This document shows positions 25,242-61,191 of a DNA stretch of 64,000 nucleotides, piece by piece. The notes under the pieces are model-generated. The model ran no database searches, was not told the origin of the DNA, and saw nothing but the letters and a program-made list of their open reading frames with translations. Both the position numbers and the translations under genes were made by a program. Within the stretch, counting starts at the first letter, position 1, and every line of letters begins with the position of its first letter. Source of the stretch: an uncultured Candidatus Rokubacteria bacterium (GTDB lineage: Bacteria > Methylomirabilota > Methylomirabilia > Rokubacteriales > DASRDR01); NCBI GenBank assembly GCA_963804185.1, contig CAWDPM010000018.1, positions 156,848 through 220,847 on the forward strand, written 5' to 3'.

Positions 25242-27443
25242 TCACGGCGCCGCGAAGCGGCGGAGGACGTTGTCGACGACGCGAGAGATGTTGTTCCGGT
25301 AGCCGTTGTGGGAGAGGCTCCCGCAGAAGGTGATCGAGCCAACCGAGAACACGGCCCCGCCGTTCGGCGTCTCGAAGTACACCATGTCGGCCCGGATCAG
25401 CTTCTCGGGCGGGTCGCCGGGCCAGGTCGCGACGTGGGTGAGCCAGTCCTCGGGGACGAGGACGAATCGCGTGAGGTCGTGCTTCTCCGACGAGGCCAGG
25501 ACCACCGCGTGCGGCGGCGTCCCGAGCCGCAGGTCGGCCCGGTCCAGCTCGAAGCCGGCGGCGCCTCCTCCCGAGAGGCCGAAGTCGCCGAGGATCTCGT
25601 CCGGCACGCCCTCGAAGATCCACGAGACGCGGGCGTCCTCCGACGCCGGGAGGCGGCGGTAGTACGACCCCTCGAATGGCCCCTGCGAGGTGAAGCCGAC
25701 GCCGGCCAGCTTCTGGGGTGGCCGCCCGTTGCGGCGCCAGAGCCCTCCGTACTGGCCGTCGAAGCTCATGAAGTACTCGCCGGACTCGGCGGCCCAAGCC
25801 CGGATGCCCCCCTCCGCGCGTCGCACCTCCAGCGCGCCCGGGACCGCGGGATGGGCCGCGACCCGCCAGTAGAAGCCGTTGCCACCGAGATACATCAGCC
25901 GGCCGCCCCGCTCGAGGTAGGCCGTCAGCGCGTCCATCGTCCGGAGGCTCTGGTACTCGGGGTGCGTCGGGGTCAGGACGACCCTGTACCGGGAGAGCAG
26001 TTCGAGACCCTCGGCGTGGAGGTCCTCGTCGGTGACCACGTCGTAGCCGTGGCCCATCCGCTCCAGCCAGTCGAGGAGGTAGAGATCGGCGGGCAGGTGG
26101 CGGACGCCGGACCCCCGCGGGTCCACGTAGGCCAGGAAACCCGATCGGAGGTTCAGGATGGGCCGGAGACGCGAGGAGTATGCGATCCCGCTCCCGTCGC
26201 GGTGGTAGTTGTAGGTGGAGAGCCCGTAGTCCTGGTGCTCGTCGCTCGTCCACGGGCGCGCGCCCCAGGCCGCCACGCGCGCCCGGTACTCGTCGTCGGT
26301 GACCCCTCGCGCGATGTTCGCGTACACGATATAGGTGAAGGTGGGCATCAGCACGCAGATGTCGGCCATCGGCCGGCCGCGCCGCGGGCGGACGAAGAAC
26401 GGGATCATGTCCTCGACGTCGCCCGCGCGCAGGCGCACCGCGTACACGCCGCTTCGAAGCCCGTCCGGCACGGTGTATGTGAAGTCGGTGGCCCACCCTG
26501 AGTCGTAGAGGTCGTCGTCGTGGAAGTGGATGGCGCCATACTCACCGGGCGCGTGGCGCCAGCAGGTTTCCTCGCCCGTCCAGCTCGAGCCCATCATGGC
26601 GCGCGCCGGGAGGTTCACCAGCTCCCCGTGAAGCCCGCTGGGCCCCACGTCCACCGCGCGAGTGCTCGAGGTCTCCCGGCTGAAGTCCCACGCCGCCACC
26701 AGATGGCGGCCGGTGGCTCCGTCCGGCGCGGCAGGGATGGCCGTCTCCGCGAGGGCGATGTCGTAGAGCGCGGGCCCCTCGATCTTGCCGTTGTAGTGAC
26801 CGCCCACCGGGGTGCCGCCCAGCGCGGCGACCAGCAGCGGGGTGCCGCTGTCGAGCTCCGGCGTGAACGCCACGGTGATGGAGTCGCCACCGGCGTCGTC
26901 CGCCCGCACACGAGGAACGAGCGGCGCTTGGCGCACGGCGAGCGTTCGCGTGGCCGCGTCGTACGTGGCCCACACGCGATACCAGGTCCGCGCGAGCAGG
27001 GGCTTGCCGACGTGGACCGCCGCGACGCTCCCGCGGCCGTCCCCGACCAGAGCGCCCGCGCCGCGGTCGTCCACGAAGAGGGCGAATCCGGTGCCCGCGT
27101 TCGGCTCGTGGCGCGCCACGATTCCCTGTCGGCCCTGCCCGGGGGTGGTCGGCCAGATCATCGCGACCAGCGTGAAGCTGTTGAGCCGCCGGAGCGCCGG
27201 CGAGTCGGGCACCCGGAGGTAGGAGCCGAGTGGCACCGGCTGGACGCGAGAGGGATAGCTCGCCGCGAACGGCGCGGCGACGGGCTCCTCCTTGATTCCG
27301 GGGCCCGCCGGATTCGGGTCGCCCGAGATCAAGCGGACCAGGCGGACCTGGTAGGGTATCGCCGCGGTGCTGGACACCTTGAAGGCGATCGTCTCGCCCG
27401 GGGCAACGGAGAAGCGGTCGGCGTAGCCGGTCAGTGGCAGCAT
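25242..27443 (-). CDS. Large protein of the N,N-dimethylformamidase large (beta) subunit-like family (tentative)
   Basis: 733 aa. Recognition of the DmfA2-like / LamG-jellyroll architecture is from memory only, so the call is tentative. No catalytic residues were verified. Confidence 0.45.
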   Translation of the reverse strand: MLPLTGYADRFSVAPGETIAFKVSSTAAIPYQVRLVRLISGDPNPAGPGIKEEPVAAPFAASYPSRVQPVPLGSYLRVPDSPALRRLNSFTLVAMIWPTTPGQGRQGIVARHEPNAGTGFALFVDDRGAGALVGDGRGSVAAVHVGKPLLARTWYRVWATYDAATRTLAVRQAPLVPRVRADDAGGDSITVAFTPELDSGTPLLVAALGGTPVGGHYNGKIEGPALYDIALAETAIPAAPDGATGRHLVAAWDFSRETSSTRAVDVGPSGLHGELVNLPARAMMGSSWTGEETCWRHAPGEYGAIHFHDDDLYDSGWATDFTYTVPDGLRSGVYAVRLRAGDVEDMIPFFVRPRRGRPMADICVLMPTFTYIVYANIARGVTDDEYRARVAAWGARPWTSDEHQDYGLSTYNYHRDGSGIAYSSRLRPILNLRSGFLAYVDPRGSGVRHLPADLYLLDWLERMGHGYDVVTDEDLHAEGLELLSRYRVVLTPTHPEYQSLRTMDALTAYLERGGRLMYLGGNGFYWRVAAHPAVPGALEVRRAEGGIRAWAAESGEYFMSFDGQYGGLWRRNGRPPQKLAGVGFTSQGPFEGSYYRRLPASEDARVSWIFEGVPDEILGDFGLSGGGAAGFELDRADLRLGTPPHAVVLASSEKHDLTRFVLVPEDWLTHVATWPGDPPEKLIRADMVYFETPNGGAVFSVGSITFCGSLSHNGYRNNISRVVDNVLRRFAAP

Positions 27444-27557: not shown

Positions 27558-28670
27558 TCAGGCGCCCCGGTTGAGAGCCGACTCCGCGATCCGCGGCGGT
27601 GCGACTACAAGGTAGCTCACGAGCCAGCCCACTCCCCCGGCGATTGCGATCGCGCCCGTCCAGAGGTGCACGGACCAGGTCACGCGGGCCCACAGCATGA
27701 TCGCGACGAAGTACAGCAGGTACTGCAGGGCGGGGATTGCGAACGCCACCGCGCGGAACGCGCGGATACGGACGGGCGATGGGCGGAGCCACCAGAGCAC
27801 GGCGTCCCCGACCAGCCCGGCCAGGACGGCGGCGCCAATCAGCGGGTACGGGCCCGTGTCGAGATACTTGTCGTGGATGATCGCCATCAGCGCGACGTTC
27901 ACCGACAGCAAGACGGTGAGACTCCCCAGGGGGAGCGGGCGGCTTCGGAGGACGAACAGCACCAGCCCGGTCAGGACCGCGGGCTGCACCAGGAACCCGG
28001 CGAGCCCGACCGACTGGTACAGGAACGCCGCCCCCTTGTTCCCGGCGGCGGATGGCTGCGTCACCCACGTCGTCCCGTACGGGCTCGCGTACTCGGTGAA
28101 GAACGTGATGAGGGAGAGGAAGAGGGTGAGGGAGGCGACCATCGGCATCCGCGCGATCCAGCTCTGCGCGGATGGCGGTGGACCGTGGAGTCCGGCGCGA
28201 AGCGGGCCGGTCACCATGAGCCCGCCACCGACGGCGAGGGCGAGATGACTCGGGCTGATGAGGCCTTCGATACCGTCCTCGATTCCGAAGACCACGTGCC
28301 ACAGCATGTCGGCCACACCGGCAACCAGGAAGATGAACACGCCGACGAAGGACACTCCGTAGCCGACCGGCAGGGCGGTCGACCAGGACGCTCCCCGGCG
28401 CGTGTTCCCGTAGAAGACCGCGGCGAGCGCGCCAGCACCGGCGGCGAAGCCCGAGTAGAGAACTGCGTGCCACGGGGTGAAGAACGTCTCGAGCTCCGGC
28501 ACGTGGATGTGCGCCCACCCGTCGAGGTAGAGGCCGCCGAGGAGCCAGGCGCCGAGCGCCACCATCAGCCAGTCGAACCGGACGCCGCTCTCGGGCAGGG
28601 CGGCGCGTCTGGGCGGCTCCAGCATCCCTTCAGTCGACTCGCGTAGGACCGTCACTGAGCGGCTCGCCAT
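27558..28670 (-). CDS. Hypothetical polytopic membrane protein
   Basis: About 10 predicted TM helices; no recognised family. Confidence 0.5.
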   Translation of the reverse strand: MASRSVTVLRESTEGMLEPPRRAALPESGVRFDWLMVALGAWLLGGLYLDGWAHIHVPELETFFTPWHAVLYSGFAAGAGALAAVFYGNTRRGASWSTALPVGYGVSFVGVFIFLVAGVADMLWHVVFGIEDGIEGLISPSHLALAVGGGLMVTGPLRAGLHGPPPSAQSWIARMPMVASLTLFLSLITFFTEYASPYGTTWVTQPSAAGNKGAAFLYQSVGLAGFLVQPAVLTGLVLFVLRSRPLPLGSLTVLLSVNVALMAIIHDKYLDTGPYPLIGAAVLAGLVGDAVLWWLRPSPVRIRAFRAVAFAIPALQYLLYFVAIMLWARVTWSVHLWTGAIAIAGGVGWLVSYLVVAPPRIAESALNRGA

Positions 28671-29734: not shown

Positions 29735-31318
29735 CTAAGCGGTCCGCTCCCGCTCGATCAGCACGCGCCGCAGGACCTTGCCCGATGCTGACTTCGGAAT
29801 CTGGTCGGTGAAGCGCACGTGCCGGATGCGCTTGTGGGGGGCCACCCGCTCGGCGACCCACGCCATCAGCGTGTCGGCGCTGGTCCCGCGCGCAGCGTCG
29901 TCGGGCTTGAGCACCACGTACGCGAGGGGGACCTCACCCGCCTCCTCGTCGGCCTTGCGGATGACCGCGACGTCGAGGACCGCGGCGTGCGTCAGCAGGA
30001 GCGCCTCCAGCTCGGCTGGAGCTACCTGCAGGCCCTTGTACTTGATGAGCTCCTTGGTGCGATCGACGACATAGAACCACCCCTCGTCGTCCACGTAGCC
30101 GACGTCGCCGGTGTGGTACCAGCCCTCCTCGTCGATGGCCTCCGCCGTGTCCTGGGGCCGATTGAGGTAGCCGCGCATGATCTGGGGCCCGCGGATCAGG
30201 AGCTCGCCCGACTGGCGCGCGCCGAGCGCGGCGCCGGTCACGAGATCGACGATCTTCACCTCGGTGTTCGGCACGACCTTGCCGATCGACCCGGGCTTCG
30301 ATGGGGCGCCGACCGTCGGGCTGAGATGGGTGACGGGGCTCGCCTCCGTCATGCCGTACCCCTGGACGACGGGACAGCCCAGCTTCTGTCCGAGCGCGCG
30401 GGCGATCTCCTCCCCGAGCGGCGCCGCGCCCGAGAACACGAGGCGCACGCTCGAGAGATCGAACTGCGCGACCGCCGGGTGCTTCACCAGCCCCAGAACG
30501 ATGGGCGGCACGAGCGGCAGGACGGTCACCCGATGCTTCTGGACGAGGCCCAGAAACTCCACGAGGTCGAAGCGTGGCATCGTCACCACCGTGCTGCCGT
30601 TGGCCAGGCACAGCTTCATGATGACGACGAGGCCGTAGATGTGGAAGAACGGGAGCACCGCCACGACCACGTCGCGCTCGCCGAAGCACTCGAACCCCTG
30701 CATGCCCTCGCACTGCCGGAGATTCGCGACCAGGTGGCGGTGGCTGAGCATGACCCCCTTGGGCAGCCCCGTCGTCCCGCTGGAGTAAGGCAGCGCGACG
30801 AGGTCCCGTCCCGGGTCGATGGCGACAGCGCGCGGGATCGGAGGCGCCTCCAGCAGCTCCGCGAACGGACGGGCGCCCTCCCCGGTCCCGATGACGAAGA
30901 TCTCCTTGATCCCCGTCCGCGCTGCCGCCTCCCTCGCCTTTTCGAGAGCGGCCGGGACCGTGACCAGGAACCGCGCGCCCGAGTCCCTGAGCTGAGTGGC
31001 CAGCTCGTCGGCGGTGTACAGGGGATTGACCGTGGTATTGATCGCGCCGAGCGTCGCCACCGCGTGGAACACCACTGCGTACTCGGCGCAGTTCGGGCTG
31101 TAGATGGCGACCACGTCGCCCTTGCGCAGTCCGTGCTGCGACAGACCGCTCGCGGCGCGGCGCACGGTGTCGGCGAGCTGCCGGTACGTCAGGACGCGGC
31201 CGCTCGGCCCGTCGATGAAGGCTGGCTTGTCGCCGAGGCGCTCGGCGTGCCGCAGGACGTACTCGGTGATGGTGAGCTCGGGGATCGTGACGTCAGGGCT
31301 GCTGCTCCTGATGATCAC
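29735..31318 (-). CDS. AMP-dependent synthetase/ligase (4-coumarate-CoA ligase-like acyl-CoA synthetase)
   Basis: AMP-binding motif YSSGTTGLPKGVMLSH, GYGMTE, and GWYHTGD...KELIKYKG (A8/A10 motifs). Confidence 0.8.
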   Translation of the reverse strand: MIIRSSSPDVTIPELTITEYVLRHAERLGDKPAFIDGPSGRVLTYRQLADTVRRAASGLSQHGLRKGDVVAIYSPNCAEYAVVFHAVATLGAINTTVNPLYTADELATQLRDSGARFLVTVPAALEKAREAAARTGIKEIFVIGTGEGARPFAELLEAPPIPRAVAIDPGRDLVALPYSSGTTGLPKGVMLSHRHLVANLRQCEGMQGFECFGERDVVVAVLPFFHIYGLVVIMKLCLANGSTVVTMPRFDLVEFLGLVQKHRVTVLPLVPPIVLGLVKHPAVAQFDLSSVRLVFSGAAPLGEEIARALGQKLGCPVVQGYGMTEASPVTHLSPTVGAPSKPGSIGKVVPNTEVKIVDLVTGAALGARQSGELLIRGPQIMRGYLNRPQDTAEAIDEEGWYHTGDVGYVDDEGWFYVVDRTKELIKYKGLQVAPAELEALLLTHAAVLDVAVIRKADEEAGEVPLAYVVLKPDDAARGTSADTLMAWVAERVAPHKRIRHVRFTDQIPKSASGKVLRRVLIERERTA

Positions 31319-31557
31319 TGGGCTGCCCGGTCTGTGAGCCGGTGTAGGCCGGTCATCGACAGGAGCCTATCGTCAGCGCTCGGAGGCCGTCAAGTCCGGG
31401 GTCAGCTGGTGCGTGGTCAGCTGGGGCGAGGAGTTGACGAGCCCGGTGGAAGATGGTGTGGTTTCAGCGGCCCGGCAGTCCACACGCGTCCGCGGCGCTG
31501 CTCCTCGATGCCGAAGAGCTTGGGGCTCGTGGGGGTGGACGACGGAGGAGGAAAGCG

Positions 31558-32115
31558 ATGACGGAACGCATCATCCTGCGAACAGGCGAGGCGCTCGTGG
31601 CCGGAGGGCCGCCGGGAACGGCGGCGGAGCCCGAGGTCGTGATCGGCGCCCTGGACGGTCCGGTCGGCACCGCGATGGCCACGCTCATCGGCGCCCAGGT
31701 CAAGGGGCACACCCGCGTCTTCGCGCTCCTCAACACCGACGTGCAGGTCCGCCCCGCCACCCTGATGGTCAGCAAGGTCACGGTCCGGGGCGAGAAGGCA
31801 ACCAAGTACACGAACATCCTCATGGGTACCGTGCAGGCGGCGATCGCGCATGGCGTGCTCGACGCGGTGCGCTCGGGCGACCTCCCGAGGAGCCAGGTGA
31901 ACGAGCTTGGCATCATCTGCGCCGTCTGGCTGGCCCCGACCATCGTCGACGTGGCCGACCTCGATCACCGGATGCTGTTCGACATCCATCGCCGCGGGAT
32001 GGCGAAGGCGATAGGCAAGGCCATGCGCCACGAGCCGTCGATCGACTGGTTGCTCGAGAACCAGGACAAGGTCGTGCACCGGTATTTCCAGATGGGAGTC
32101 GAGGGCAAGATCTAG
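31558..32115 (+). CDS. Formaldehyde-activating enzyme (Fae/Fhm family) homologue
   Basis: 185 aa. GEALVAGGPPGTAAEPEVVIGALDGPVG and RPATLMVSKVTV align with Fae ([22 protein letters not shown]...KPNTLMFNKVTI). There is a good RBS (GGAGGAGG) upstream. Confidence 0.6.
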   Translation: MTERIILRTGEALVAGGPPGTAAEPEVVIGALDGPVGTAMATLIGAQVKGHTRVFALLNTDVQVRPATLMVSKVTVRGEKATKYTNILMGTVQAAIAHGVLDAVRSGDLPRSQVNELGIICAVWLAPTIVDVADLDHRMLFDIHRRGMAKAIGKAMRHEPSIDWLLENQDKVVHRYFQMGVEGKI

Positions 32116-32446: not shown

Positions 32447-33700
32447 ATGTCGTTCAACACGTTTGACCTTCACCCCGACCTCCTGCGCGCCGTCGCCGCT
32501 CTCGGCTTCGAGACGCCCACCCCGATCCAGCGGGACGCCATCCCGCCGGTTCTCGCGGGCCGGGACGTCCTGGCGTGCGCCATGACCGGGAGCGGCAAGA
32601 CCGCGGCCTTCCTCCTCCCGATTCTCCAGCGCCTGATCGGGCGCCCGCGTGGCGTCACGCGCGCCCTCGTCCTCGCCCCCACGCGCGAGCTGGCCGCGCA
32701 GATCGACGAGCACCGGCAGGAGCTGGCCCGTCACGCTCGCCTCACCGGGGCCGCCGTCTTCGGCGGGGTCGGCTACGTCCCCCAGGAGCAGGCGTTCCGC
32801 CGCGGGGTCGACGTCCTCGTGGCCACGCCGGGCCGCCTGTTGGACCACCTGGGTCAGTCCCACGGCCGCCTGCCCGGCCTGGACGTGCTGGTGCTCGACG
32901 AGGCGGACCGCATGCTCGACATGGGCTTTCTGCCGGACATCCGTCGATTGCTCCGGCAGCTCCCGGCTCGCCGCCAGACCCTCCTCTTCTCGGCGACGAT
33001 GCCATCGCCGATCGTGGCGCTCGCCCGCGAGATCCTGCGCGAGCCCGTGACCATTGCCGTGGAGCGCCCGGCGGCGCCGGCCACCGGCATCACCCACACC
33101 GCGTACCCGGTCGCGACCGAGCTGAAGTCGCGCCTCCTCCTTGCGCTCCTCGAGCGTCGCGACACCCGCAGCGTCCTCGCTTTCACGCGAACGAAACACC
33201 GCGCCAACCGCCTCGCCGAGTTCCTCGGCCGGAACGGCGTGCGAGTGGAGCGGATTCACGGGAACCGTAGCCAGGCTCAGCGGACACAGGCCCTCGCGGG
33301 CTTCAAGCGCGGGCACTTCCAGGTGCTGGTGGCCACGGACATCGCCGCGCGGGGCATCGACATCGACGCCCTGAGTCACGTGGTGAACTTCGACGTTCCG
33401 CCGTTGCCCGAGGACTACATCCATCGCGTGGGCCGGACCGCGCGGGCCGACGCCCTGGGCGATGCGCTGACGCTCGTCGCCCCGGGTGAGGAAGCGGATC
33501 TTCGCACCATCGAACGGGCCATCGGGACTCGGATCGCCCGGGCCACCCTCCCGGGTTTCGACTACGGTCAGCGGCCGTCCGAACGACTGGAGGTCCCCCT
33601 TGCCGAGCGCATCGCCGCGATCCGGGCCCAGCGGGCCAGTCAGGGACATCGCCGAGCGGCTGGCGGGCGCCGGCACACGGCGGCGGTTGTCGGCCGGTAG
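32447..33700 (+). CDS. DEAD-box ATP-dependent RNA helicase (RhlE-like)
   Basis: Q-motif, Walker A AMTGSGKTAAF, DEAD box VLDEADRML, SAT, and HRVGRTARA motif VI. It has a long (approx. 330 nt) 5' leader. Confidence 0.9.
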   Translation: MSFNTFDLHPDLLRAVAALGFETPTPIQRDAIPPVLAGRDVLACAMTGSGKTAAFLLPILQRLIGRPRGVTRALVLAPTRELAAQIDEHRQELARHARLTGAAVFGGVGYVPQEQAFRRGVDVLVATPGRLLDHLGQSHGRLPGLDVLVLDEADRMLDMGFLPDIRRLLRQLPARRQTLLFSATMPSPIVALAREILREPVTIAVERPAAPATGITHTAYPVATELKSRLLLALLERRDTRSVLAFTRTKHRANRLAEFLGRNGVRVERIHGNRSQAQRTQALAGFKRGHFQVLVATDIAARGIDIDALSHVVNFDVPPLPEDYIHRVGRTARADALGDALTLVAPGEEADLRTIERAIGTRIARATLPGFDYGQRPSERLEVPLAERIAAIRAQRASQGHRRAAGGRRHTAAVVGR

Positions 33701-48016: not shown

Positions 48017-48841
48017 GTGAGCGGGAACCCGGCGGCGGCGCTCCGCAATGGCGCGGGATGGGAGACCGTCCTCAGGGCGCCGGCCCAGGGTCAGCACGTC
48101 GCGCAGCTCTACAGCGAGCGGCGCTTTCTGTTCCATGCGGTCGGTGAGTTCGTCGGCGCCGGCCTTCGGCAGGGTGAGGCAGTCCTCCTCATCCTGACGC
48201 CCGCCCACCGTCACCCCATCGTGCGTCAGCTCGAGGGCCAGGGGTTCACGCTCGGGGATCTCTCGCGCCGCCGGCAGCTGACCATCCTCGATGCCACGCC
48301 GACCCTGACCGAGTTGATGGTCGGTGGTCTGCCGAATCGCGAGCGTTTCCAGCTGGTGATCGGCGGAGCGGTCGAGGCGGCGAGGGCCGCCGGATATCGG
48401 AAGCTACGCTCGTTCGGCGAGATGGTGGACGTGCTGCGTCGAACCAGCCTCACCGCCACGTTGCAGCTGGAGGCGCTGTGGAGCGAGCTGGTGCTGGCTC
48501 ATGGGATGGCGCTCCTGTGTGGCTATTCGATCGACAACTTCGATCCCCATACCTACCAGGGGATCCTGCAGGGCGTCAGCAGGGCGCACTCCCATCTCGT
48601 TCCCGTCGAGGACTACGCGCGCCTGGAGCGGGCGGTGGAACGGGCCTACGCGGAGGTCTTCGGTGTCAGGCGCGACGCAGGTTTTCTGCGTCGGGCGTTT
48701 CTCGCCCACTACCCGAGACCGGCCGTGATGCCCGACGCCGAGGCGGCCATTCTCGCCGCGAGGGAGTTCGTTCCGGCGGCGGCCAGCACGCTCCTCGAGC
48801 GGATCCGGCACCACTACCAGAGCTCCACGCCGACAGCCTGA
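48017..48841 (+). CDS. MEDS-domain protein (putative sensory/regulatory)
   Basis: HVAQLYSERRFLFHAVGEFVGAGLRQGEAVLLILTP resembles the N-terminal MEDS (DcmR sensory) domain. The identification is tentative. Confidence 0.45.
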   Translation: MSGNPAAALRNGAGWETVLRAPAQGQHVAQLYSERRFLFHAVGEFVGAGLRQGEAVLLILTPAHRHPIVRQLEGQGFTLGDLSRRRQLTILDATPTLTELMVGGLPNRERFQLVIGGAVEAARAAGYRKLRSFGEMVDVLRRTSLTATLQLEALWSELVLAHGMALLCGYSIDNFDPHTYQGILQGVSRAHSHLVPVEDYARLERAVERAYAEVFGVRRDAGFLRRAFLAHYPRPAVMPDAEAAILAAREFVPAAASTLLERIRHHYQSSTPTA

Positions 48842-49209: not shown

Positions 49210-50193
49210 TCACTCGGACTCCTGCGCGCGCTCGAGCTTCAGACGGATGTTGACGAAGTTGTACGGCGGCCAGGGCCCCGTGTAGCGGAAGGTGAGCTTG
49301 TCGTAGAGTGCGCCAACCTCCTTGACCTTCGCGTCGAAGGCCGTTTCCTTGTCCCGGGAGACGAGGAAGGCCGCGTTCATGATCATCTTGTCGCCGATGG
49401 GCTTGTTGGCGCGGGCGGCCACCGACACGTCCCGCAGCTGCGCGAAGATGTCGGATGCGTACTGATCGGTCCGCGCCTGGAGGGCCGCCTCGATCTGCCG
49501 GCCATACTGCATGCGGGCGAAGTAGGTCGAGCCCGGGACGGCCGCGATCTCGTTCTTGAGCCGCCGGATGTCCTCGTCGTCGTTCTCGATCTCGCGGACC
49601 ATGACATCCCGGTCCCACAGGACCTTGAGGCCGAACTCCACCTTGTCCTGCATCTTGTCGAGCACGTCCCGGAAAGCGTCGTAGGCGCCCCGCAGGAGCT
49701 CCACGATGTCGTCGCGCGTCTTGAACACGGTTCCGAAAGACATCGGGATCACCGTGAAGCTCTTCATCACCGTCTCGTTGACTCGCTCGTGAGCGAGGAC
49801 GTTCTCGCGCGTCGCGTCCAGCACCTCTTCCGGGGTGTCCGAGATGACCGCGGCGATCTCCCGGAAGCCGACGGTCTGGACCTCGGTCGGCTCGCCACCG
49901 AGACTGATCGCCCCGAACCGACGCGGCTCGGCGCTCCGGATGATGCAGTAGACGTACTTGGCGCGGCTGTCGGTTGATCGGCTCACGGGAGCCCCACTGC
50001 CGGGGCCGGGACGCTGCCGGAGGGGCGCCCTCGAGACGGCGTCGCCCGTCGACACGTCCGCCGCCGGTGCGCGTTTTCGCTCCACGGGGAGCTTGACGGG
50101 CGTCGCGCGCTTCGCGGCCGTCGGGGGGGGCGAGGGGAGGGGCCGTGGCGTTACCGTGCGACGGGCCCTCGGTTTCGAGGGCTTCTTCTTCAC
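49210..50193 (-). CDS. GvpF/GvpL-family protein (gas vesicle protein F/L homologue) with basic Pro/Lys/Arg-rich N-terminal extension
   Basis: It aligns to GvpF/L along the whole domain: YVYCII vs LYLYGIF, ENVLAHERVNETVMKSFTVIPMSFGTVF, VEFGLKVLWD, MIMNAAFLVSRDKETAFDAKV..LTFRYTGPWPPYNFVNI. The GTG start is about 5 nt downstream of the receiver gene stop. The N-terminal approx. 110 aa are low-complexity and basic. Confidence 0.75.
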   Translation of the reverse strand: MKKKPSKPRARRTVTPRPLPSPPPTAAKRATPVKLPVERKRAPAADVSTGDAVSRAPLRQRPGPGSGAPVSRSTDSRAKYVYCIIRSAEPRRFGAISLGGEPTEVQTVGFREIAAVISDTPEEVLDATRENVLAHERVNETVMKSFTVIPMSFGTVFKTRDDIVELLRGAYDAFRDVLDKMQDKVEFGLKVLWDRDVMVREIENDDEDIRRLKNEIAAVPGSTYFARMQYGRQIEAALQARTDQYASDIFAQLRDVSVAARANKPIGDKMIMNAAFLVSRDKETAFDAKVKEVGALYDKLTFRYTGPWPPYNFVNIRLKLERAQESE

Positions 50194-50197
50194 GACG

Positions 50198-50653
50198 TCA
50201 CCTCTCGTTCTTCGGCCGGGACTTCGGCGAATCGAGGATACGCCGGATGGCGTCCAGGAGCTGATCCGGCAAACAAGGTTTCGTGATGACGAGATCGCAG
50301 CCGGCCTCGCGAGCCGTCTGCGCGTGCTCGGGCAGGGCATGCCCGGTCAGCACGACGACGGGGATCTTCTTCGTCCGGGGGTCGCGCTTCAGGCGCCGGG
50401 TGGCCTCCCAGCCGTCCATCACCGGCAGCGAGAGGTCCATGACGATGATGTCCGGCTTGAGCGCCTCGGCCTGGCGGATAGCGTCCGCGCCGTTCTCGGC
50501 CTCGGCGACTCGGAAGCCCGAAAACTTTAGGAAGAGCACGTACACCGTCCGGTTGTCCTGGACGTCGTCCACGATTAGGACGAGCGGCCCGTTCTCGTCG
50601 CCCGCCGCCACGTCCTTCCGCGTCCCGGGCTCGGCGGCGTTCTTCGTCATCAC
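50198..50653 (-). CDS. Single-domain response regulator (CheY-like receiver)
   Basis: LIVDDVQDNRTV...IIVMDLSLPVMDGWEA...KIPVVVLTGH. There is no output domain. The ATG overlaps the kinase stop (ATGA). Confidence 0.85.
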   Translation of the reverse strand: MMTKNAAEPGTRKDVAAGDENGPLVLIVDDVQDNRTVYVLFLKFSGFRVAEAENGADAIRQAEALKPDIIVMDLSLPVMDGWEATRRLKRDPRTKKIPVVVLTGHALPEHAQTAREAGCDLVITKPCLPDQLLDAIRRILDSPKSRPKNER

Positions 50654-52791
50654 CGCTTCGACCCGAGAGGGAGGATGAGGGTGAAGATGGAGCCCTGGCG
50701 GAGCTTGCTCTCGAGGGTGATCCGACCACCAAGCACCACCGCGAGGCGGCGGGAGATCGACAGTCCGAGACCAGTCCCGCCGGCCTCCCGCGTCAGAGTG
50801 GGATCGGCTTGAGAGAAGGCCTCGAAGATCCGTGCCTGATCCGCCTCCGCGATGCCGATGCCGGTGTCGGCGACCGCGATGGCCAACTCCCGGGTCGATC
50901 TCTGGTGCGTGCAGGAGACGGTCACCGAGCCGCGCGGCGTGAACTTGAGCGCGTTCGTGAGGAGGTTCAGGAGGATCTGCTTCACCTTCTGGCGGTCGCT
51001 CCGGATCGGGGCGAGTCCCGGCGGGACATTCGCGGTCACCGCCAGGTTCGAGCGTGCGATGAGCGGCTCGACCTCGCTCATGATCTCGTCGACCAGCTCG
51101 TTCAGCTTGATCGAGGAGAGCCGAACCGGCATCTTGCCGGCCTCGATCCGCGAGATGTCGAGGATCTCGTTGATCAGGGTCAGCAGGTGGCGGCCGTTGG
51201 CGTCGATGCGGGCCAGGGACTCCCGCTGGGTCGGACCCAGCGGGCCCGAGACGCCGCGGAGGAGCAGGCTCGTGTAGCCGAGGATGGCATTGAGGGGTGT
51301 CCGCACGTCGTGGGAGACGTTGGCCAGGAACTGGGACTTGGCCACCGACGCCTGCTCCAGCTCGATGGCCTGCCGGCGGAGGAGCTCGTTCTGGTGGGCG
51401 AGCGCCGATGTCGCCTCCTGGACCCGTCGCTCGAGCTGGGCCGAGGCCGCCTTAAGCTGCTCGTAGAGCTGCTCGCGCTCGATGGCCTCCGCCCGGTCGT
51501 GAAGGATGGTGACGATGGCCGACACCTCGGCGGAGTCGCCGTACACTGTACCCGACACGGCCTCCATCGGCACCTGCTGACCCGTCTTGGGGTCGACGAG
51601 GTTCACGCCGCCGTGGTACCGCGACTGTCCGGTCTTCCCGAAGAGGAGGTTCGACACGAACGAGGTGAAGTGCGCGTCGTTCGCCTGGACGCGCTGGGTC
51701 TCGGCCGGGCTCGCGTTCTCGGAGGTGGAGAAGAGGCGCTCGGCCGGAGTGTTCATCATCACGAGGTTGCCTGAGGGGTCGGTGACGAGGATGGGATCGG
51801 CGACCGAGTCGATGACGAGATCAAGCCGGTCGCGCTCGGCCCGAACTTCCGCCTCCGTGGCGCGCAGCTTCCGGTAGTTCTCCTGGATCTCCAGGGTCGC
51901 GCGCCGGAGGTCGGACACGTTCCGCAGGATGGACACGATGCCCATGCCAATGCGCGCGTCCCCGGCCGTCGTGCTGATCAGCTCGAAGAGCAGATCCGAC
52001 CCCTCGGTGGGGTCCACCAGCGCGAGCTCGTGGGGCGCCGACCGCAGGGGCTCCACGGCGCTTCGGCCGAGCGCCGACGAGAACAGGATGTTATTGATGG
52101 CCACCGCCCGGCGGCGGCCCTCGCTCTCGTCCTCCCGCGTGGCGAAGAGGCGCTCGGCTCGCGCGTTCGCGATGACCATGCGACCCTCGGTGTCGGTCAG
52201 CATGATCGGATCGGTCACCCGGTCGAGGACGCTGTGGAGAAGATCGCGCTCTCGGCGAAGGCGCCGCTCGGCCTCGACGCTGGTGGCACTCATCCGCGCG
52301 CGCGCGAGCCGGTACCCGAGATACTCGGATGCCCATGCGAGCTCGTGCCGGTTCGCGGTGACCGGGCGGACCAGCAGTAGCCCCGTCGGCGCCTCCACTT
52401 CGGCCTGAGTGCCATGGAGCGGCATGGCCAGGATGGGCGGACGCCCGGAGAAGAGTGGCCCCGTCGTCTCCCTGGACACCACGACGGGTTGCGACGCGGA
52501 CAGGACACGGACCAGGGGATGCTCCCGCGCCTCCAGGTCGAGCGTGAAGCCGTTGACGGCTTCATGCAGAGCGCCTCGGGCCGCCAGGTGAATCAGCCGT
52601 GTTCGATCCGCGTCCAGCACGAGACAGCGGCCCTCTCGCAAGCCCGCGTGTTCCGTGAGCCACTCGAGACATCGCCGGACCATCTCGGCCGCGTCTTCAC
52701 AGGCAAGGAGAAACTCCAGGAGCGCGAGCCGCTCCTCAGGTCCCGGCTCGGGCCGTCGCGCCGGTCGCGCCGACGCAGCGCCGCGCGTCAC
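50650..52791 (-). CDS. Cytoplasmic multi-sensor histidine kinase (GAF-like + two PAS + HisKA + HATPase_c)
   Basis: No TM helices. The PAS cores are LDRVTDPIMLTDTEGRMVIANARAERLF and IDSVADPILVTDPSGNLVMMNTPAERLF. The H-box is FLANVSHDVRTPLNAILGY. N, G1 and G2 boxes are present (LLNLLTNALKFT, DTGIGI, GGTGLGLSI). Confidence 0.85.
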   Translation of the reverse strand: MTRGAASARPARRPEPGPEERLALLEFLLACEDAAEMVRRCLEWLTEHAGLREGRCLVLDADRTRLIHLAARGALHEAVNGFTLDLEAREHPLVRVLSASQPVVVSRETTGPLFSGRPPILAMPLHGTQAEVEAPTGLLLVRPVTANRHELAWASEYLGYRLARARMSATSVEAERRLRRERDLLHSVLDRVTDPIMLTDTEGRMVIANARAERLFATREDESEGRRRAVAINNILFSSALGRSAVEPLRSAPHELALVDPTEGSDLLFELISTTAGDARIGMGIVSILRNVSDLRRATLEIQENYRKLRATEAEVRAERDRLDLVIDSVADPILVTDPSGNLVMMNTPAERLFSTSENASPAETQRVQANDAHFTSFVSNLLFGKTGQSRYHGGVNLVDPKTGQQVPMEAVSGTVYGDSAEVSAIVTILHDRAEAIEREQLYEQLKAASAQLERRVQEATSALAHQNELLRRQAIELEQASVAKSQFLANVSHDVRTPLNAILGYTSLLLRGVSGPLGPTQRESLARIDANGRHLLTLINEILDISRIEAGKMPVRLSSIKLNELVDEIMSEVEPLIARSNLAVTANVPPGLAPIRSDRQKVKQILLNLLTNALKFTPRGSVTVSCTHQRSTRELAIAVADTGIGIAEADQARIFEAFSQADPTLTREAGGTGLGLSISRRLAVVLGGRITLESKLRQGSIFTLILPLGSKR

Positions 52792-52794
52792 GGT

Positions 52795-53103
52795 CTAGGC
52801 GGGCTGGGGCGTCCGCCGCGCCCCACGGGGCCGCGTGGCGCCCGAGAGTGTGGCCGCGAGTTGCGCCCGGAGGGCGGCGTTCTCGGCGAGGACGGCTTCC
52901 TGGGAGATGACCGCGGCCGTCCGTGACACTGGTGGTAGCTGCGCTACCCACTCCGAGTACCTCAGGTAGGTGTCGATCGAGGCCACCACGGCTCGTGCCT
53001 CGACCGTGATCAGGTCGATGCCCATGAGAAGTCCCTTGTCGAGGACCCGGTCGAGCAGGTCGACAAGACCGGTGCCCCGCTGTCCCGCTAGATCGGTCCG
53101 CAC
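52795..53103 (-). CDS. GvpA/GvpJ-family small protein (gas vesicle structural protein homologue)
   Basis: LVDLLDRVLDKGLLMGIDLITVEARAVVASIDTYLRYSEWV matches the GvpA core (L.dvLdriLDkG.v..........iEaR.viASveTYLryaEa). The beta-hairpin region is about 9 aa shorter than in canonical GvpA. The 45-aa C-terminal extension is GvpJ-like. Its stop abuts the kinase start. Confidence 0.7.
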   Translation of the reverse strand: MRTDLAGQRGTGLVDLLDRVLDKGLLMGIDLITVEARAVVASIDTYLRYSEWVAQLPPVSRTAAVISQEAVLAENAALRAQLAATLSGATRPRGARRTPQPA

Positions 53104-54611: not shown

Positions 54612-54762
54612 CGCAGCTCCTCTTTGGTGCAAGAGGGCTGCCACGGGCCCGCCCTGTCCGCGGTCACGACATGCTGTCGACTGCAACCCCGAAGTTGGCA
54701 ACGCCCCGGACTGGCCTGGCGGCTGGGGGGCACGCCCCTTGCTACCGTCTCGTCGGGTTGAG

Positions 54763-56112
54763 ATGAATCGTCGGATCTTCGGCCTCGAAAGCGAGTACGG
54801 CCTTACTTGCACGCATGAGGGCCGGCCTGTCCTGGCCCCCGATATACTCGCGCGATTCCTGTTCGAGGAAGTCGTCCCGGGTCCGAGGTATCCGAATGTC
54901 TTCCTGGAGAACGGCGGCCGGCTGTACGTGGATACCGGCTTCCATCCTGAGTACGCCACGCCGGAATGCGACGACCTCATCGAGCTCGTGGCATACGACC
55001 GGGCGGGCGAGCGGCTCGTCGAGGACCTCGTGTGGCGGGCCGATCGGCGACTCAAGAACGACGGGATCACTGGGCGAATCCAGGCGTTCAAGAACAACAC
55101 GGACTCCGCCGGCAACTCCTACGGCTGTCACGAGAACTACCTCGTGTCGCGTGGCACGCCCTTCCCCCGTCTGGTGGAGGCGCTGATTCCCTTCCTTGTC
55201 AGCCGTCAGGCCTTCGCGGGCGCCGGCAAGATCCATCGCGGCCGGCGCGGCGTGGAGTACCACCTGAGCCAGCGCGCCGACCATATCGTCGACGAGGTGT
55301 CGGGAACCACGGTGTCCGGCCGACCCATCATCGACACGCGCGACGAGCCGCACGCGGACGGCGGGCGGTTTCGCCGCCTCCACGTGATCGTCGGCGACTC
55401 CAACATGTCCGACGTGGCGACCTACCTCAAGGTCGGCACCACTGCCCTCGTGCTCGATATGGTCGAGGACGGGTTCTTCGACCAGGACGTCGGGCTCGAG
55501 TCCGCCGTCGACGCCCTGCACACCATCTCGAGGGATCCTTCGCTTCGCGAGCCGGTGCGGCTCAAGGACGGTCGCGCCTACACGGCCCTCGAGATCCAGC
55601 TCGCCTACCTGGAGAGGTGCCAGGCCCACGAGCACCGGGTCGGGGGCGACGCGACCTCGCGGGCAGTGCTGAGGCGGTGGAGCGACGTCCTGGCGGGGCT
55701 CGCGCAGGACCCGCCGGCGGCGCAGCGCGAGGTGGACTGGGCCATCAAGCGCTCCCTGATCGAGCGCTACATGACGAAGCATGCCTGCTCGCTCGAGGAT
55801 CCCCGTGTCGCCCAGCTGGACCTCCAGTACCACGACATCCGCGCGGGACGCGGTCTCTACCATCTCCTTGCCCGGCACGGCGAGGTCGGGACGCTTGTCC
55901 GCGACGAAGTTGTCGAGCGGGCGAAGCACCGCCCGCCCCAGACCACTCGGGCGCGCCTGCGTGGCGACTTCGTCCGCCGCGCGAACCTTCTGGGGTGGGA
56001 GTACCAGGTGGATTGGGCCTACGTGAGGACGCTGGGTCCGGACAGCGAGACCATCCTCTGTCCAGACCCCTTCCTTGCCCACGACGAGCGAGTGGAGCGG
56101 CTAGCGGCCTGA
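54763..56112 (+). CDS. pafA: Pup-protein ligase PafA (PafA/Dop family, carboxylate-amine ligase fold)
   Basis: MNRRIFGLESEYGLTC...YPNVFLENGGRLYVDTGFHPEYATPECD...AFKNNTDSAGNSYGCHENYLV closely tracks the PafA N-terminal and catalytic regions. The Dop deamidase alternative is not fully excluded. Confidence 0.8.
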   Translation: MNRRIFGLESEYGLTCTHEGRPVLAPDILARFLFEEVVPGPRYPNVFLENGGRLYVDTGFHPEYATPECDDLIELVAYDRAGERLVEDLVWRADRRLKNDGITGRIQAFKNNTDSAGNSYGCHENYLVSRGTPFPRLVEALIPFLVSRQAFAGAGKIHRGRRGVEYHLSQRADHIVDEVSGTTVSGRPIIDTRDEPHADGGRFRRLHVIVGDSNMSDVATYLKVGTTALVLDMVEDGFFDQDVGLESAVDALHTISRDPSLREPVRLKDGRAYTALEIQLAYLERCQAHEHRVGGDATSRAVLRRWSDVLAGLAQDPPAAQREVDWAIKRSLIERYMTKHACSLEDPRVAQLDLQYHDIRAGRGLYHLLARHGEVGTLVRDEVVERAKHRPPQTTRARLRGDFVRRANLLGWEYQVDWAYVRTLGPDSETILCPDPFLAHDERVERLAA

Positions 56113-58632: not shown

Positions 58633-59313
58633 CTACCCCTCACCGTGATCGGCGAACAGTCGGGCCACCGCCGTCAGGTCCTTGACCAGCCGTTCCATCG
58701 TGGCGTGGCGCGCGGCCTCATCCGGCGCCCGCAGCACCGCCGACGGGTGAATGGTCGCGATGACGTATCGCGCCAGCGTCGACGGGATTGGCTCACCCCG
58801 GGACTGGGTGACGCGGACGCCTCGCCCAAGCAGGGTCTGCGCGGCCGTCGCGCCGAGGCAGACGATCGCGCGGGGCCGTACCGCGGCGAGCTCGGACGTC
58901 AGCCACGGCCGGCAGGCGCGAATTTCCCACGCCGTGGGCTTCTTGTGAATGCGCCACTTTCCTCGCGGCTCCCAGTTGAAGTGCTTCACCACGTTGGTGA
59001 CGTACACACGCGTCCGGTCCAGCCCTGCTGCCTCGAGAGCCCGATCGAGGAGCCGTCCGGCGGGCCCGACGAATGGACGACCGGCCAGATCCTCCTCGTG
59101 GCCAGGCTGCTCGCCGACGAGCATCACATCGGCCGGCACCGGGCCCTCGCCGAACACGGTCTGGGTCGCCCTTTCCCACAGGTCGCACGCCCGGCAGCCG
59201 GCGGCCGAGCCGCGGAGATCGGCCAGTGCCGGGGGGGACCCGCCGGCGTCGACCTCCGGTGCCGGCGGCACGGCATTCCTGCCAGACGGCATCCTGTGCC
59301 CGCCGGTCCTCAC
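58633..59313 (-). CDS. Uracil-DNA glycosylase, family 4
   Basis: GEGPVPADVMLVGEQPGHEEDLAGRPFVGPAGRLLD...VYVTNVVKH, the family-4 UDG motifs. Confidence 0.8.
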   Translation of the reverse strand: MRTGGHRMPSGRNAVPPAPEVDAGGSPPALADLRGSAAGCRACDLWERATQTVFGEGPVPADVMLVGEQPGHEEDLAGRPFVGPAGRLLDRALEAAGLDRTRVYVTNVVKHFNWEPRGKWRIHKKPTAWEIRACRPWLTSELAAVRPRAIVCLGATAAQTLLGRGVRVTQSRGEPIPSTLARYVIATIHPSAVLRAPDEAARHATMERLVKDLTAVARLFADHGEG

Positions 59314-60314
59314 GCGGCACGGCTCCGGGGAAGCTGGCGTCGCCGTGGGGTCCTGACCCGACGCAGCCGGGGCAGGATCTCGGCCTCATAGAACCGGATG
59401 AACCCCTCCTGGTCGGACCCGATCTGGTGCACGCAGACGTGGTCGTAGCCCGCGTGACTCGCTCGCCGGATCGCCGCGAGATGCCGGGCCGGGTCGGGCC
59501 CGCAGACGACGACTCTGGCGACCTGCTCCTCGCTGATCGGTTTGAACGCCGCCTCGAAGTGCGCGGGCTGCGCGATCTCCGTGAACAGCGCGCCCTCGAG
59601 AGCGGCCAAGGCCCAGATCTCGTGAGCGGTTCGACGGGCGTCCCGCTCACTCTTGGCCCAGCAGACCGTCACCTCGACGAAGCTGGGCTTGCCACGACCC
59701 CCCGCCCGGCGGAAGGTGCGGAGCAGAGCTGGATCGGGATCGGTCGTGACGAAGCCGTCACCGATCTGACCCGCCAGACGTGCCGCCTTCGCGCCGCTGG
59801 CAGCCACGACGATCGGCGGCGGCTTCGGCGGCAGCGTATACAGCCGCGCGGCCTCCACCGTGTAATGAGCGCCGCGATGCGACTGGACATCCCCGCGCCA
59901 GAGCAAGCGCATGACCGCCACGGCCTCTTCCAGCATCTCGCGCCGCACGTCCACCGGCGGCCACTTGGCGCCTGTCACGTGTTCGTTCAGGTTCTCGCCG
60001 GTCCCCACCCCCAGGAAGAAGCGGCCCGGCATCATGGCCGCCACGGTCGCTGCCGCGTGGGCCACGATCGCGGGATGCGTCCGGATGATCGGGCAGGTCA
60101 CGCCTGTTCCGACGGTGAGCCGCTCGGTCGCGCGAGCGATCCCTCCCAGTGCGGCCCACACGAAGGGGCTCTGGCCTTGCCGGTCGGTCCACGGGTGGAA
60201 ATGATCAGAGATCAGCGCGAAATCGAAACCCGCTGTCTCGGCCCGCACTGCCTGCTGGACCAGTTCGGTTGGGCCGAACTCTTCACTTGAGAGCTTGTAG
60301 CCGATTCGCGTCAT
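59310..60314 (-). CDS. Luciferase-like monooxygenase (LLM) class oxidoreductase, F420-dependent G6PD-like subfamily
   Basis: MTRIGYKLSSEEFGP..LV..A..AE.AGFDFALISDHFHPW is the N-terminal signature of the F420-dependent LLM family. Its stop overlaps the UDG start (ATGA). Confidence 0.75.
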   Translation of the reverse strand: MTRIGYKLSSEEFGPTELVQQAVRAETAGFDFALISDHFHPWTDRQGQSPFVWAALGGIARATERLTVGTGVTCPIIRTHPAIVAHAAATVAAMMPGRFFLGVGTGENLNEHVTGAKWPPVDVRREMLEEAVAVMRLLWRGDVQSHRGAHYTVEAARLYTLPPKPPPIVVAASGAKAARLAGQIGDGFVTTDPDPALLRTFRRAGGRGKPSFVEVTVCWAKSERDARRTAHEIWALAALEGALFTEIAQPAHFEAAFKPISEEQVARVVVCGPDPARHLAAIRRASHAGYDHVCVHQIGSDQEGFIRFYEAEILPRLRRVRTPRRRQLPRSRAA

Positions 60315-60333: not shown

Positions 60334-61191
60334 TTAACCCCACCCAGCGATGAGAGAGACGAGGAGCAGGCTGATCAGCGTCGGGCCGTCGGTCGTGCGG
60401 CCCCGGCCAGTCCCAGGCGTATCGGACGCCTCCGACAGGACCCGCCTCGCACGGCCGCGCTCATAGCCCGCGCGGAACGCCGGCTCCTCGGCAGCCGGAC
60501 CATACCGGTCCCGAAGGGTCGTGCCCGTGCCCTCGAAGGGCGGGGCCTCGCGGGGCAGGCGGAACGCCGAGTCGAACCCCAGACGGTACAGCGCCTCGTC
60601 CTTGCGGAAGTCGCCGCCCTGGCGCGTGTATTCCGCCTCCTCGGCATCGCGGAGGCCGACCCACCACTCCTCGCGTGCAGCGTCGACGCTCTCCGCCCCC
60701 ATTCGGGTCATGAGCTCGCGGACCTTGCGCGCCTCCGCGTCGTCCTCTGCCATCGCGACCACGATGCTCCGCCCACTGCGCAAGGCATGGCGGTAGACGT
60801 ACAGCTCATCGGTTGGGAGTCCCTTGGAGAGCGTGTCGTCGAGCTGACTGCCGATTGCGCCCCCAGCCAGGGCCCCGATCACTCCCAGCGCGAGCGCCCC
60901 GGCCGCGAGCACGGGACCCACGCCAGGCAGGGCGAGCGATGCAACGGCGAGGCCGCCCGCCGTTCCCGCGGCCCCGCCCACTACGCTCCCGATCGTCCCG
61001 CCGATGCCCGGCTGCTCCGCGTCGGTCGTCGGCACGGCGGCCTTCAGAGTTGCCTCGGCCGGATCGGAGGATTGGACACTCGCCGGCGACAGAGCGCTGA
61101 GTCGAGCCTCGGGAATGCCGGCCGCCCGGAGGGCGTCGACAATCTGGAGCGCTGCGGAATAGCGTTGGACGACGCCAACGACTGCCTGCAT
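60334..61191 (-). CDS. Hypothetical membrane protein with glycine-zipper segment
   Basis: Gly-zipper TM region (GGTIGSVVGGAAGTAGGLAVASLALPGVGPVLAAGALALGVIGALAGGAIG), an acidic soluble region, and a C-terminal TM (LISLLLVSLIAGWG). Confidence 0.45.
   Translation of the reverse strand: MQAVVGVVQRYSAALQIVDALRAAGIPEARLSALSPASVQSSDPAEATLKAAVPTTDAEQPGIGGTIGSVVGGAAGTAGGLAVASLALPGVGPVLAAGALALGVIGALAGGAIGSQLDDTLSKGLPTDELYVYRHALRSGRSIVVAMAEDDAEARKVRELMTRMGAESVDAAREEWWVGLRDAEEAEYTRQGGDFRKDEALYRLGFDSAFRLPREAPPFEGTGTTLRDRYGPAAEEPAFRAGYERGRARRVLSEASDTPGTGRGRTTDGPTLISLLLVSLIAGWG

Follow-up and report, generated by a model that had tools for sequence, protein, structure and literature searches.

A Fae-family gene in a Rokubacteria contig

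The window analysed here is a 64,000-nucleotide (64-kb) stretch of contig CAWDPM010000018.1 (positions 156,848 to 220,847, assembly GCA_963804185.1) from an uncultured Candidatus Rokubacteria bacterium. Its forward strand carries, at 31558..32115, an intact open reading frame (ORF) of 185 amino acids plus stop, which encodes a non-canonical paralogue of the formaldehyde-activating enzyme (Fae), assigned to a Fae3-like clade. An earlier interpretation made from the letters alone (the sequence-only reading) had taken this ORF for a Fae homologue; both the ORF and the family were correctly recognised, as the end-to-end Pfam match and the predicted fold described below indicate.

The start codon is preceded at 31544..31552 (+) by the Shine-Dalgarno-like sequence GGAGGAGGA, ending five bases 5' of the ATG, which agrees with the strong ribosome-binding site noted previously. 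A longer reading of 220 amino acids from the upstream ATG at 31453 was dropped, because every homologue starts at the MTERII of the 185-residue version and spans 100% of that query. A divergent intergenic region of 239 bp (31319..31557), the presumed location of the promoter, separates the gene from an AMP-binding acyl-CoA ligase gene on the reverse strand (29735-31318), and a DEAD-box helicase gene lies downstream on the forward strand (32447-33700). Both neighbours, identified in the Pfam scan, had been named correctly from the letters, the former as a 4-coumarate-CoA-ligase-like gene. Scans for promoters, terminators and Rfam families in and around the Fae-like gene detected neither sigma-70-like nor terminator-like sites and gave no Rfam match. 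The gap of 331 bp to the helicase gene, together with the variable neighbours seen in relatives, suggests that the gene is monocistronic.

The ratio of non-synonymous to synonymous substitution rates (dN/dS) against nine orthologues was 0.05-0.15 (dS 0.4-1.2; within Rokubacteria, dS 0.4-0.6), and the gene is therefore real, functional and under strong purifying selection. Its G+C content at third codon positions (GC3) is 0.88, resembling that of the neighbouring genes; the window as a whole has 69% G+C, and related Rokubacteria loci have 70-75%.

The encoded protein matches the Pfam profile PF08714 (Fae) with 177.2 bits (E 3e-52), residues 9-176 aligning to profile positions 1-158 of 159, so the failure of this profile to match, which the sequence-only reading had put forward as grounds for rejecting its call, did not occur. 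However, the score with TIGR03126 (one_C_fae), the equivalog model for true Fae, was 106.7 bits, which is under the cut-off of 118.05, and the Fae-Hps model NF009833 gave 77.8 bits against a cut-off of 274, the window protein being a single-domain protein of 185 amino acids. Among solved structures, the sole meaningful sequence match was Fae of M. extorquens (1Y5Y), with 41 bits and 25% identity. An AlphaFold2 monomer model had a mean predicted local distance difference test (pLDDT) score of 79.7 and a predicted template-modelling score (pTM) of 0.79. The top five Foldseek matches of this model in the PDB were all chains of 1Y5Y and 1Y60 (E 3e-14 to 6e-13), with TM-scores of 0.74-0.77 when normalised by the query and 0.84-0.88 when normalised by the target; the next match had an E-value of 2e-3, and none other was below 1e-3. 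The protein is thus predicted by modelling to have the Fae fold, and is distant in sequence from the characterised enzyme.

A paralogue clade distinct from canonical Fae

A search over 5.8 billion proteins returned 6026 matches, the best 120 of which are 182-185 amino acids long and 71-95% identical to the window protein; identity to fellow members of its clade ranges from 64 to 95%. Among species-representative genomes, homologues 88-95% identical were found in metagenome-assembled genomes (MAGs) of Candidatus Rokubacteria and Methylomirabilota, one 83% identical in an alphaproteobacterial MAG, and others 76-81% identical in Aurantimonadaceae (Jiella, Aurantimonas, Fulvimarina and Aureimonas). 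Homologues with 70-76% identity come from Methylococcales and further gammaproteobacterial methylotrophs, from Methylotenera, from Methylopila, Ancylobacter and Hansschlegelia, and from many Pirellulaceae (Planctomycetes). These identities place the source of the window in Rokubacteriales. At least eight Rokubacteria species representatives carry the gene, and orthologues lie on the Rokubacteria contigs CAWEXD010000008.1 (4.05 Mb), CAVUVU010000004.1 (627 kb), CAVPSB010000002.1 (420 kb) and DASZOL010000052.1. On plasmids, tblastn detected a gene of the same clade with 67% identity on pLVM1 of Methylobacterium sp. DM1, Fae2-like genes with 38-48% identity, including fae2 of M. aquaticum 22A, and canonical fae genes with 25-30%.

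A neighbour-joining tree with bootstrap analysis was built from an alignment of canonical, archaeal, Fae2-like and own-clade sequences. Support was 90% for canonical Fae, including the archaeal Fae-Hps domain, 100% for a Fae2-like clade and 96-100% for the clade to which the window protein belongs; the latter two clades are sisters with 73% bootstrap support. The mean column identity in the clade of the window protein is 85% across phyla. Judged from these alignments, the window protein is placed in a distinct, widespread and very strongly conserved Fae paralogue clade; it is not assigned to canonical Fae because it scores below the TIGR03126 cut-off, shares 25% identity with M. extorquens Fae and falls in a separate clade.

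Three soil-metagenome contigs in ENA, with 94-98% DNA identity to the window, encode an identical protein. One of these (ERZ25039591 contig_42386, 241 kb; locus L001) has many indels relative to the window and fragmented gene calls, the acyl-CoA ligase gene and the DMFA2_C-domain gene described below being split, which resembles uncorrected long-read errors or a related strain and not the source of the window itself. An orthologue with 94% identity (locus L006) lies on CAZPNB010000155.1, a contig with 71% G+C and the Rokubacteria-type synteny with the ligase gene; it was binned as 'uncultured Spirochaetales' and is probably misbinned Rokubacteria. At the base of the clade, a protein of 178 amino acids (P0131; 52% identical) has His at the catalytic position within a clade-type motif, EAHPEV, and may represent an intermediate state between the canonical active site and the one with Glu.

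In Fae of M. extorquens, His22 is taken here to be the acid catalyst and Gln88 to line the coenzyme cleft; the residue numbers agree with the sequence of that protein. In all 121 clade members examined, His22, Ile23, Asp24 and Phe119 are replaced by Glu, Pro, Glu and Trp, respectively, and Gln88 is kept, while Phe84 is replaced by Met in 111 of them. The motif at the His22 position reads VAHIDL in canonical and archaeal Fae, DAMPEV in the Fae2-like clade and AAEPEV in the clade of the window protein. In the window gene the codons of this signature, T21-A-A-E24-P-E26, occupy 31618..31635 (+), with Glu24 aligned to His22 and Glu26 to Asp24 of the M. extorquens enzyme. The codon of Gln93, the equivalent of Gln88 and a residue that canonical Fae and the Fae2-like clade likewise keep, is at 31834..31836 (+). 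Phe119 of Fae1 aligns to Trp124, which, like Pro127, is invariant in the clade alignment; the W124-L-A-P127 segment and the five-residue insertion relative to canonical Fae are encoded at 31927..31971 (+). These five extra residues after Trp124, and about 10 extra residues at the C terminus, are common to both non-canonical clades, and the C-terminal extension H174-x-Y176...M179-G180 of the window protein is invariant in the clade alignment. The Rokubacteria sequences and two alphaproteobacterial MAGs have three more inserted residues, G-E-K (residues 79-81). The retention of an acidic pair (E24 and E26) and of Gln at the catalytic positions speaks for a conserved active site unlike the one in Fae1.

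Fae1 of M. extorquens AM1 (1Y5Y/1Y60, EC 4.2.1.147) is like the window protein in its full-length Pfam domain and in the predicted fold, and the two proteins both keep G10-E11, the GP turn, GH(T/S), the (R/K)PxT motif, Gln88 and D97. They differ in the five substitutions listed above, and the window protein has in addition the insertion after Trp124 and the C-terminal extension. Moreover, fae1 of Azospirillum brasilense lies within a cluster of genes of the tetrahydromethanopterin (H4MPT) pathway, whereas the window gene does not. Fae2 (Maq22A_1p31155 of M. aquaticum 22A, with relatives in Burkholderia, Caballeronia and Azospirillum) represents the sister clade, which resembles the window protein in that xPE stands where canonical Fae has HID, position 124 is Trp, and both the five-residue insertion and the C-terminal extension are present. 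However, Fae2 is 39% identical to the window protein and has Met where the latter has Glu, and the window protein falls outside the Fae2-like clade, which itself has 100% bootstrap support. Archaeal Fae and Fae-Hps proteins have a homologous Fae domain (33% identity to the representative P0246) but keep His22, and, unlike Fae-Hps, the window protein has no Hps domain.

The name Fae3 has been used in the literature for METUNv1_700516 of Methyloversatilis universalis FAM5 and MEALZ_RS07105 of Methylotuvimicrobium alcaliphilum, distant Fae homologues which are dispensable and not interchangeable with Fae1 (PMC5023235, PMC11748545). In M. universalis FAM5, fae3 was induced approximately 10-fold on methylamine along with the N-methylglutamate pathway; its deletion gave no phenotype, while fae1 was essential, and the authors proposed that fae3 is involved in shuttling one-carbon (C1) units between tetrahydrofolate (H4F) and H4MPT (PMC5023235). 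Similarly, fae3 of M. alcaliphilum 20Z did not rescue an M. extorquens delta-fae1 mutant, and its deletion had no phenotype; in the accompanying five-group phylogeny of Fae, groups 2-4 are of unknown function, with sensing or folate-linked roles suggested (PMC11748545). In Methylophilaceae, expression of fae2 and fae3 was moderate and unresponsive (PMC3728764). The nomenclature of Fae differs among papers (PMC6277846, PMC6373157). Methylococcales, Methylotenera and other methylotrophs carry one member of the clade of the window protein. Since these methylotroph and methanotroph lineages have a member, and since the clade is associated with methylamine genes, it is most probably the Fae3 of the literature. 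The organisms in which Fae3 was studied have canonical fae1 as well as a complete H4MPT pathway, whereas the Rokubacteria gene is here known from its locus. It is a new lineage's member of a recognised but uncharacterised Fae paralogue clade.

Genomic context and the cofactor question

The order ligase-Fae-helicase is retained in the closest Rokubacteria relatives, while at three other Rokubacteria loci (L009, L010 and L011) the gene occurs in three other, mutually unrelated contexts, which gives at least four contexts within Rokubacteria. Clustering of neighbouring ORFs, taken from 87 loci, revealed no neighbour family conserved across about 85 loci of the clade from all taxa; only lineage-specific synteny was seen, and across taxa the loci had in common just this gene and the antisense shadow ORFs opposite it. 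The location of the gene by itself, outside a methylotrophy cluster, was thus described accurately in the sequence-only reading, but since neighbours are not conserved over these loci, this stand-alone state is normal for the clade and not peculiar to this genome.

Genes of the H4MPT pathway had likewise been reported as missing nearby, and this holds over the 64 kb. Pfam scans of approximately 50 ORFs across the window identified no Mch, MtdB, Fhc, MptG or other H4MPT, methanofuran or F420 biosynthesis families. Fifteen proteins of the A. brasilense H4MPT cluster (fhcABCD, mptG, mtdB, mch and eight more) were used as tblastn queries and gave no match in the window or at the Rokubacteria loci L001-L011. 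Over the whole clade, H4MPT genes lie within 10 kb at only 3-4 of the loci. The tblastn matches were confined to three, none of them from Rokubacteria: in a gammaproteobacterial MAG (L051) the gene is located directly 3' of fhcBADC, with mptG, mtdB and mch just beyond, and at L057 and L077 fhc genes are found within a few kb. On a Methylococcales contig (L086), Pfam families of H4MPT and methanofuran biosynthesis are located 5-10 kb away.

Genes of the N-methylglutamate pathway lie beside or close to the gene in two lineages. On the conjugative plasmid pLVM1 of Methylobacterium sp. DM1 (L088, 3403-8549), mgsABC and gmaS are followed immediately by the own-clade Fae gene and then by a globin gene, and in a Methylotenera MAG (L073, 16979-20544) gmaS-mgsABC is 7 kb from the own-clade copy. 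This proximity fits the published induction of fae3 by methylamine; however, tblastn with the pLVM1 genes gave matches at only these two of the loci, and a synteny check showed that N-methylglutamate genes are not adjacent to fae3 in M. universalis.

The sequence-only reading had also pointed to an F420-type oxidoreductase in the window: the gene at 59310-60314 (-) encodes an F420-dependent LLM-class oxidoreductase matching TIGR03557 with 441 bits against a cut-off of 210. It overlaps by 4 bp with the start of a gene of the uracil-DNA-glycosylase superfamily (58633-59313, -), which suggests that the two are co-transcribed. Models of methylene-H4MPT reductase (Mer) gave the protein 70-88 bits against cut-offs of 276-349 (70 against 349 among them), so by its scores it is assigned to the FGD-like TIGR03557 family and not to Mer. 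Bacterial H4MPT pathways employ the NAD(P)-dependent MtdB and not F420, and the gene at 59310 is therefore uninformative on H4MPT. No F420 biosynthesis gene was found among the ORFs of the window covered by the Pfam scans; such genes were reported earlier for Rokubacteria (PMC8498797). The proposed hint of archaeal-type C1 cofactors in this lineage is thus unsupported, the oxidoreductase being FGD-like and F420 genes already known from Rokubacteria.

Published genomes bear on the same question. A proteogenomic study found Rokubacteria with the methanol dehydrogenase XoxF and none of three formaldehyde-oxidation pathways (PMC5103831), and a later survey of two Rokubacteria MAGs reported methanol dehydrogenase and formate dehydrogenase and mentioned no H4MPT genes (PMC8780371). 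The H4MPT pathway is present in Methylomirabilis (NC10), a sister lineage in the same phylum (PMC5020050). A protein search with Mch of A. brasilense listed 120 matches, which were Azospirillum-like, and bears neither way on the presence of Mch in Rokubacteria. This Fae call does not show the use of archaeal-type C1 cofactors by this soil bacterium, because the clade has Glu for the catalytic His and has no assigned function.

Several other genes of the window deserve mention. Upstream of the Fae-like gene by 4 kb, a protein of 733 amino acids with LamG-like and DMFA2_C (N,N-dimethylformamidase beta-subunit-like) domains is encoded at 25242-27443 (-). It is syntenic in the closest Rokubacteria contigs and matches no NCBIfam model, and plasmids of rhizobia and roseobacters commonly carry homologues with 43-51% identity to it. 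Methylobacterium sp. DM1, which has an own-clade Fae gene on its plasmid, is presumably a dimethylformamide degrader. A functional link between the DMFA2_C protein and Fae was considered, but the evidence for it was rejected, since members of this family are widespread on rhizobial plasmids and the best 25 matches listed do not include pLVM1. A group of genes at 48017-48841 (+), 49210-50340 (-), 50198-52791 (-) and 52795-53103 (-) comprises a MEDS-domain protein, with the DcmR-type sensory domain of methanogens and methylotrophs, adjoining genes for GvpL/GvpF, for a response regulator with PAS histidine kinase, and for a small protein like GvpA; gas-vesicle genes are unexpected in a soil Rokubacteria lineage. 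The gene at 54739-56112 (+) codes for a protein of the Pup-ligase family (PafA/Dop-like, 506 bits), pointing to a pupylation system in this genome, and the window edge (63478-63918, -) codes for the C-terminal portion of a shell protein of the encapsulin type (Linocin_M18 family). Finally, three ORFs with gene-like GC3, encoding 784, 370 and 285 amino acids (134-2488, +; 27558-28670, -; 60334-61191, -), have no Pfam or NCBIfam match; the product of the second resembles a multi-pass membrane protein, and this ORF is syntenic in related contigs.

Candidate roles of the clade

On balance, and with modest confidence, we favour the explanation that the window gene encodes a Fae-fold protein of a distinct paralogue clade which serves in accessory handling of formaldehyde or C1 units rather than catalysing entry into a clustered H4MPT pathway. 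The protein would be cytoplasmic, with the Fae fold, and would probably assemble as Fae does, into a homopentamer whose subunits enclose the ligand cleft between them. Fae-type chemistry, the reversible addition of formaldehyde, or of another C1 or aldehyde unit, to a pterin-type amine, may be kept, with the carboxylate of Glu24 taking over from the imidazole as the acid in dehydration of the carbinolamine. A reshaped cleft and an altered C-terminal arm could adapt the enzyme to a cofactor, substrate or direction other than those of canonical Fae. In Rokubacteria, the formaldehyde to be handled might originate from XoxF-type methanol oxidation or from demethylations. Of the two interpretations in the sequence-only reading, its fallback, a Fae paralogue acting on another substrate, is preferable, given the TIGR03126 score and the replacement of His22 in all clade members examined.

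Several points weigh against this explanation. Most taxa bearing the clade belong to groups known for H4MPT pathways, which fits a plain H4MPT-dependent accessory isoenzyme. Glutamate is able to act as a general acid, and the change from His22 to Glu is compatible with ordinary Fae activity. The reshaping of the cleft is read from the alignment alone. The equation with Fae3, probable as it is, was reached by elimination and through the association with methylamine and N-methylglutamate genes, not by sequence comparison, and naming varies between papers. The roles of His22 and Gln88 are background to the comparison, attributed to Acharya et al. 2005 (J Biol Chem).

An ordinary H4MPT-dependent Fae (EC 4.2.1.147), with the rest of the pathway and the cofactor biosynthesis genes elsewhere in the genome, is an unlikely alternative, and corresponds to the main interpretation in the sequence-only reading. 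It would account for the full-length Pfam match and a predicted fold equal to that of 1Y60, and it agrees with the public annotation of homologues as 'formaldehyde-activating enzyme' or '5,6,7,8-tetrahydromethanopterin hydro-lyase'. Other taxa that carry the clade belong almost without exception to methylotrophs, methanotrophs or Planctomycetes, the gene lies immediately 3' of fhcBADC in one gammaproteobacterial MAG, and Methylomirabilis, of the same phylum, has the pathway (PMC5020050). However, the protein scores under the TIGR03126 cut-off and is 25% identical to the characterised enzyme, and the acid catalyst His22 is replaced by Glu in every clade member examined. H4MPT genes were found neither in the window nor at the nine Rokubacteria loci, Rokubacteria genomes have been reported without the pathway (PMC5103831), and organisms bearing the clade also keep a canonical, essential fae1, for which a fae3 failed to substitute in complementation (PMC11748545, PMC5023235). 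A non-catalytic role, in which the Fae fold binds formaldehyde or a C1 unit and reports intracellular formaldehyde or methylene-pterin as a sensor or regulator, seems quite improbable. Sensing, signalling or regulatory functions have been proposed for Fae homologues (PMC3728764, PMC11748545), knockouts lacked a growth phenotype (PMC5023235, PMC11748545), and the gene stands alone among variable neighbours; constraint by partner interactions would suit the extreme conservation across phyla. Yet the protein lacks DNA-binding and signalling domains, its gene has no conserved partner alongside, and the conserved E24, E26 and Gln at the Fae active-site positions resemble a maintained catalytic site, while the fae of the Methylotenera chemotaxis cluster is of a different subtype (PMC3728764).

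The protein could also use H4F or another non-H4MPT amine, making or splitting methylene-H4F or passing C1 units between the N-methylglutamate pathway and folate, and in that case its presence in Rokubacteria would require no H4MPT. We regard this as improbable. It agrees with the N-methylglutamate genes adjacent or near in two lineages, with the methylamine induction of M. universalis fae3 and the suggested H4F-H4MPT shuttling (PMC5023235), with a modelled H4F role for another Fae homologue (PMC11748545), with the report of XoxF but no H4MPT pathway in Rokubacteria (PMC5103831) and with the altered regions of the cleft and C-terminal arm in the alignment. Against it, the N-methylglutamate linkage is limited to 2 loci out of about 85, neither N-methylglutamate nor folate genes lie near the gene at any Rokubacteria locus, and the distribution of the clade follows groups having H4MPT. 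That the gene is recently transferred, decaying or non-functional in Rokubacteria is very improbable: its closest relatives outside this lineage are alphaproteobacterial (78-83% identity) and it has several different contexts within Rokubacteria, but the selection analysis largely refutes decay, the reading frame is unbroken and preceded by a strong ribosome-binding site, its GC3 is like that of its neighbours, and at least eight Rokubacteria species representatives have it. A bolder proposal, to which we attach little confidence, is that the Fae3-like clade as a whole is H4MPT-independent, with Glu for His and with H4F or another amine as acceptor, and that in Rokubacteria it provides the missing first step of formaldehyde capture. 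If that were true, Rokubacteria would represent a natural H4MPT-free background in which the role of Fae3 is revealed.

To our knowledge, the Fae2 and Fae3 paralogues have been recognised in methylotroph genomes for nearly twenty years without an assigned function, a knockout phenotype or biochemistry. Annotation pipelines label all Fae paralogues 'formaldehyde-activating enzyme / H4MPT hydro-lyase', and these labels enter metabolic reconstructions of soil MAGs. Since the clade lacks the catalytic His and, in Rokubacteria, lies outside an H4MPT context, such a Fae call should not count as evidence for the H4MPT pathway. If complete Rokubacteria genomes bearing the gene lack H4MPT biosynthesis, this would be the first clear sign of an H4MPT-free function for the clade, and would also indicate how XoxF-bearing Rokubacteria cope with formaldehyde.

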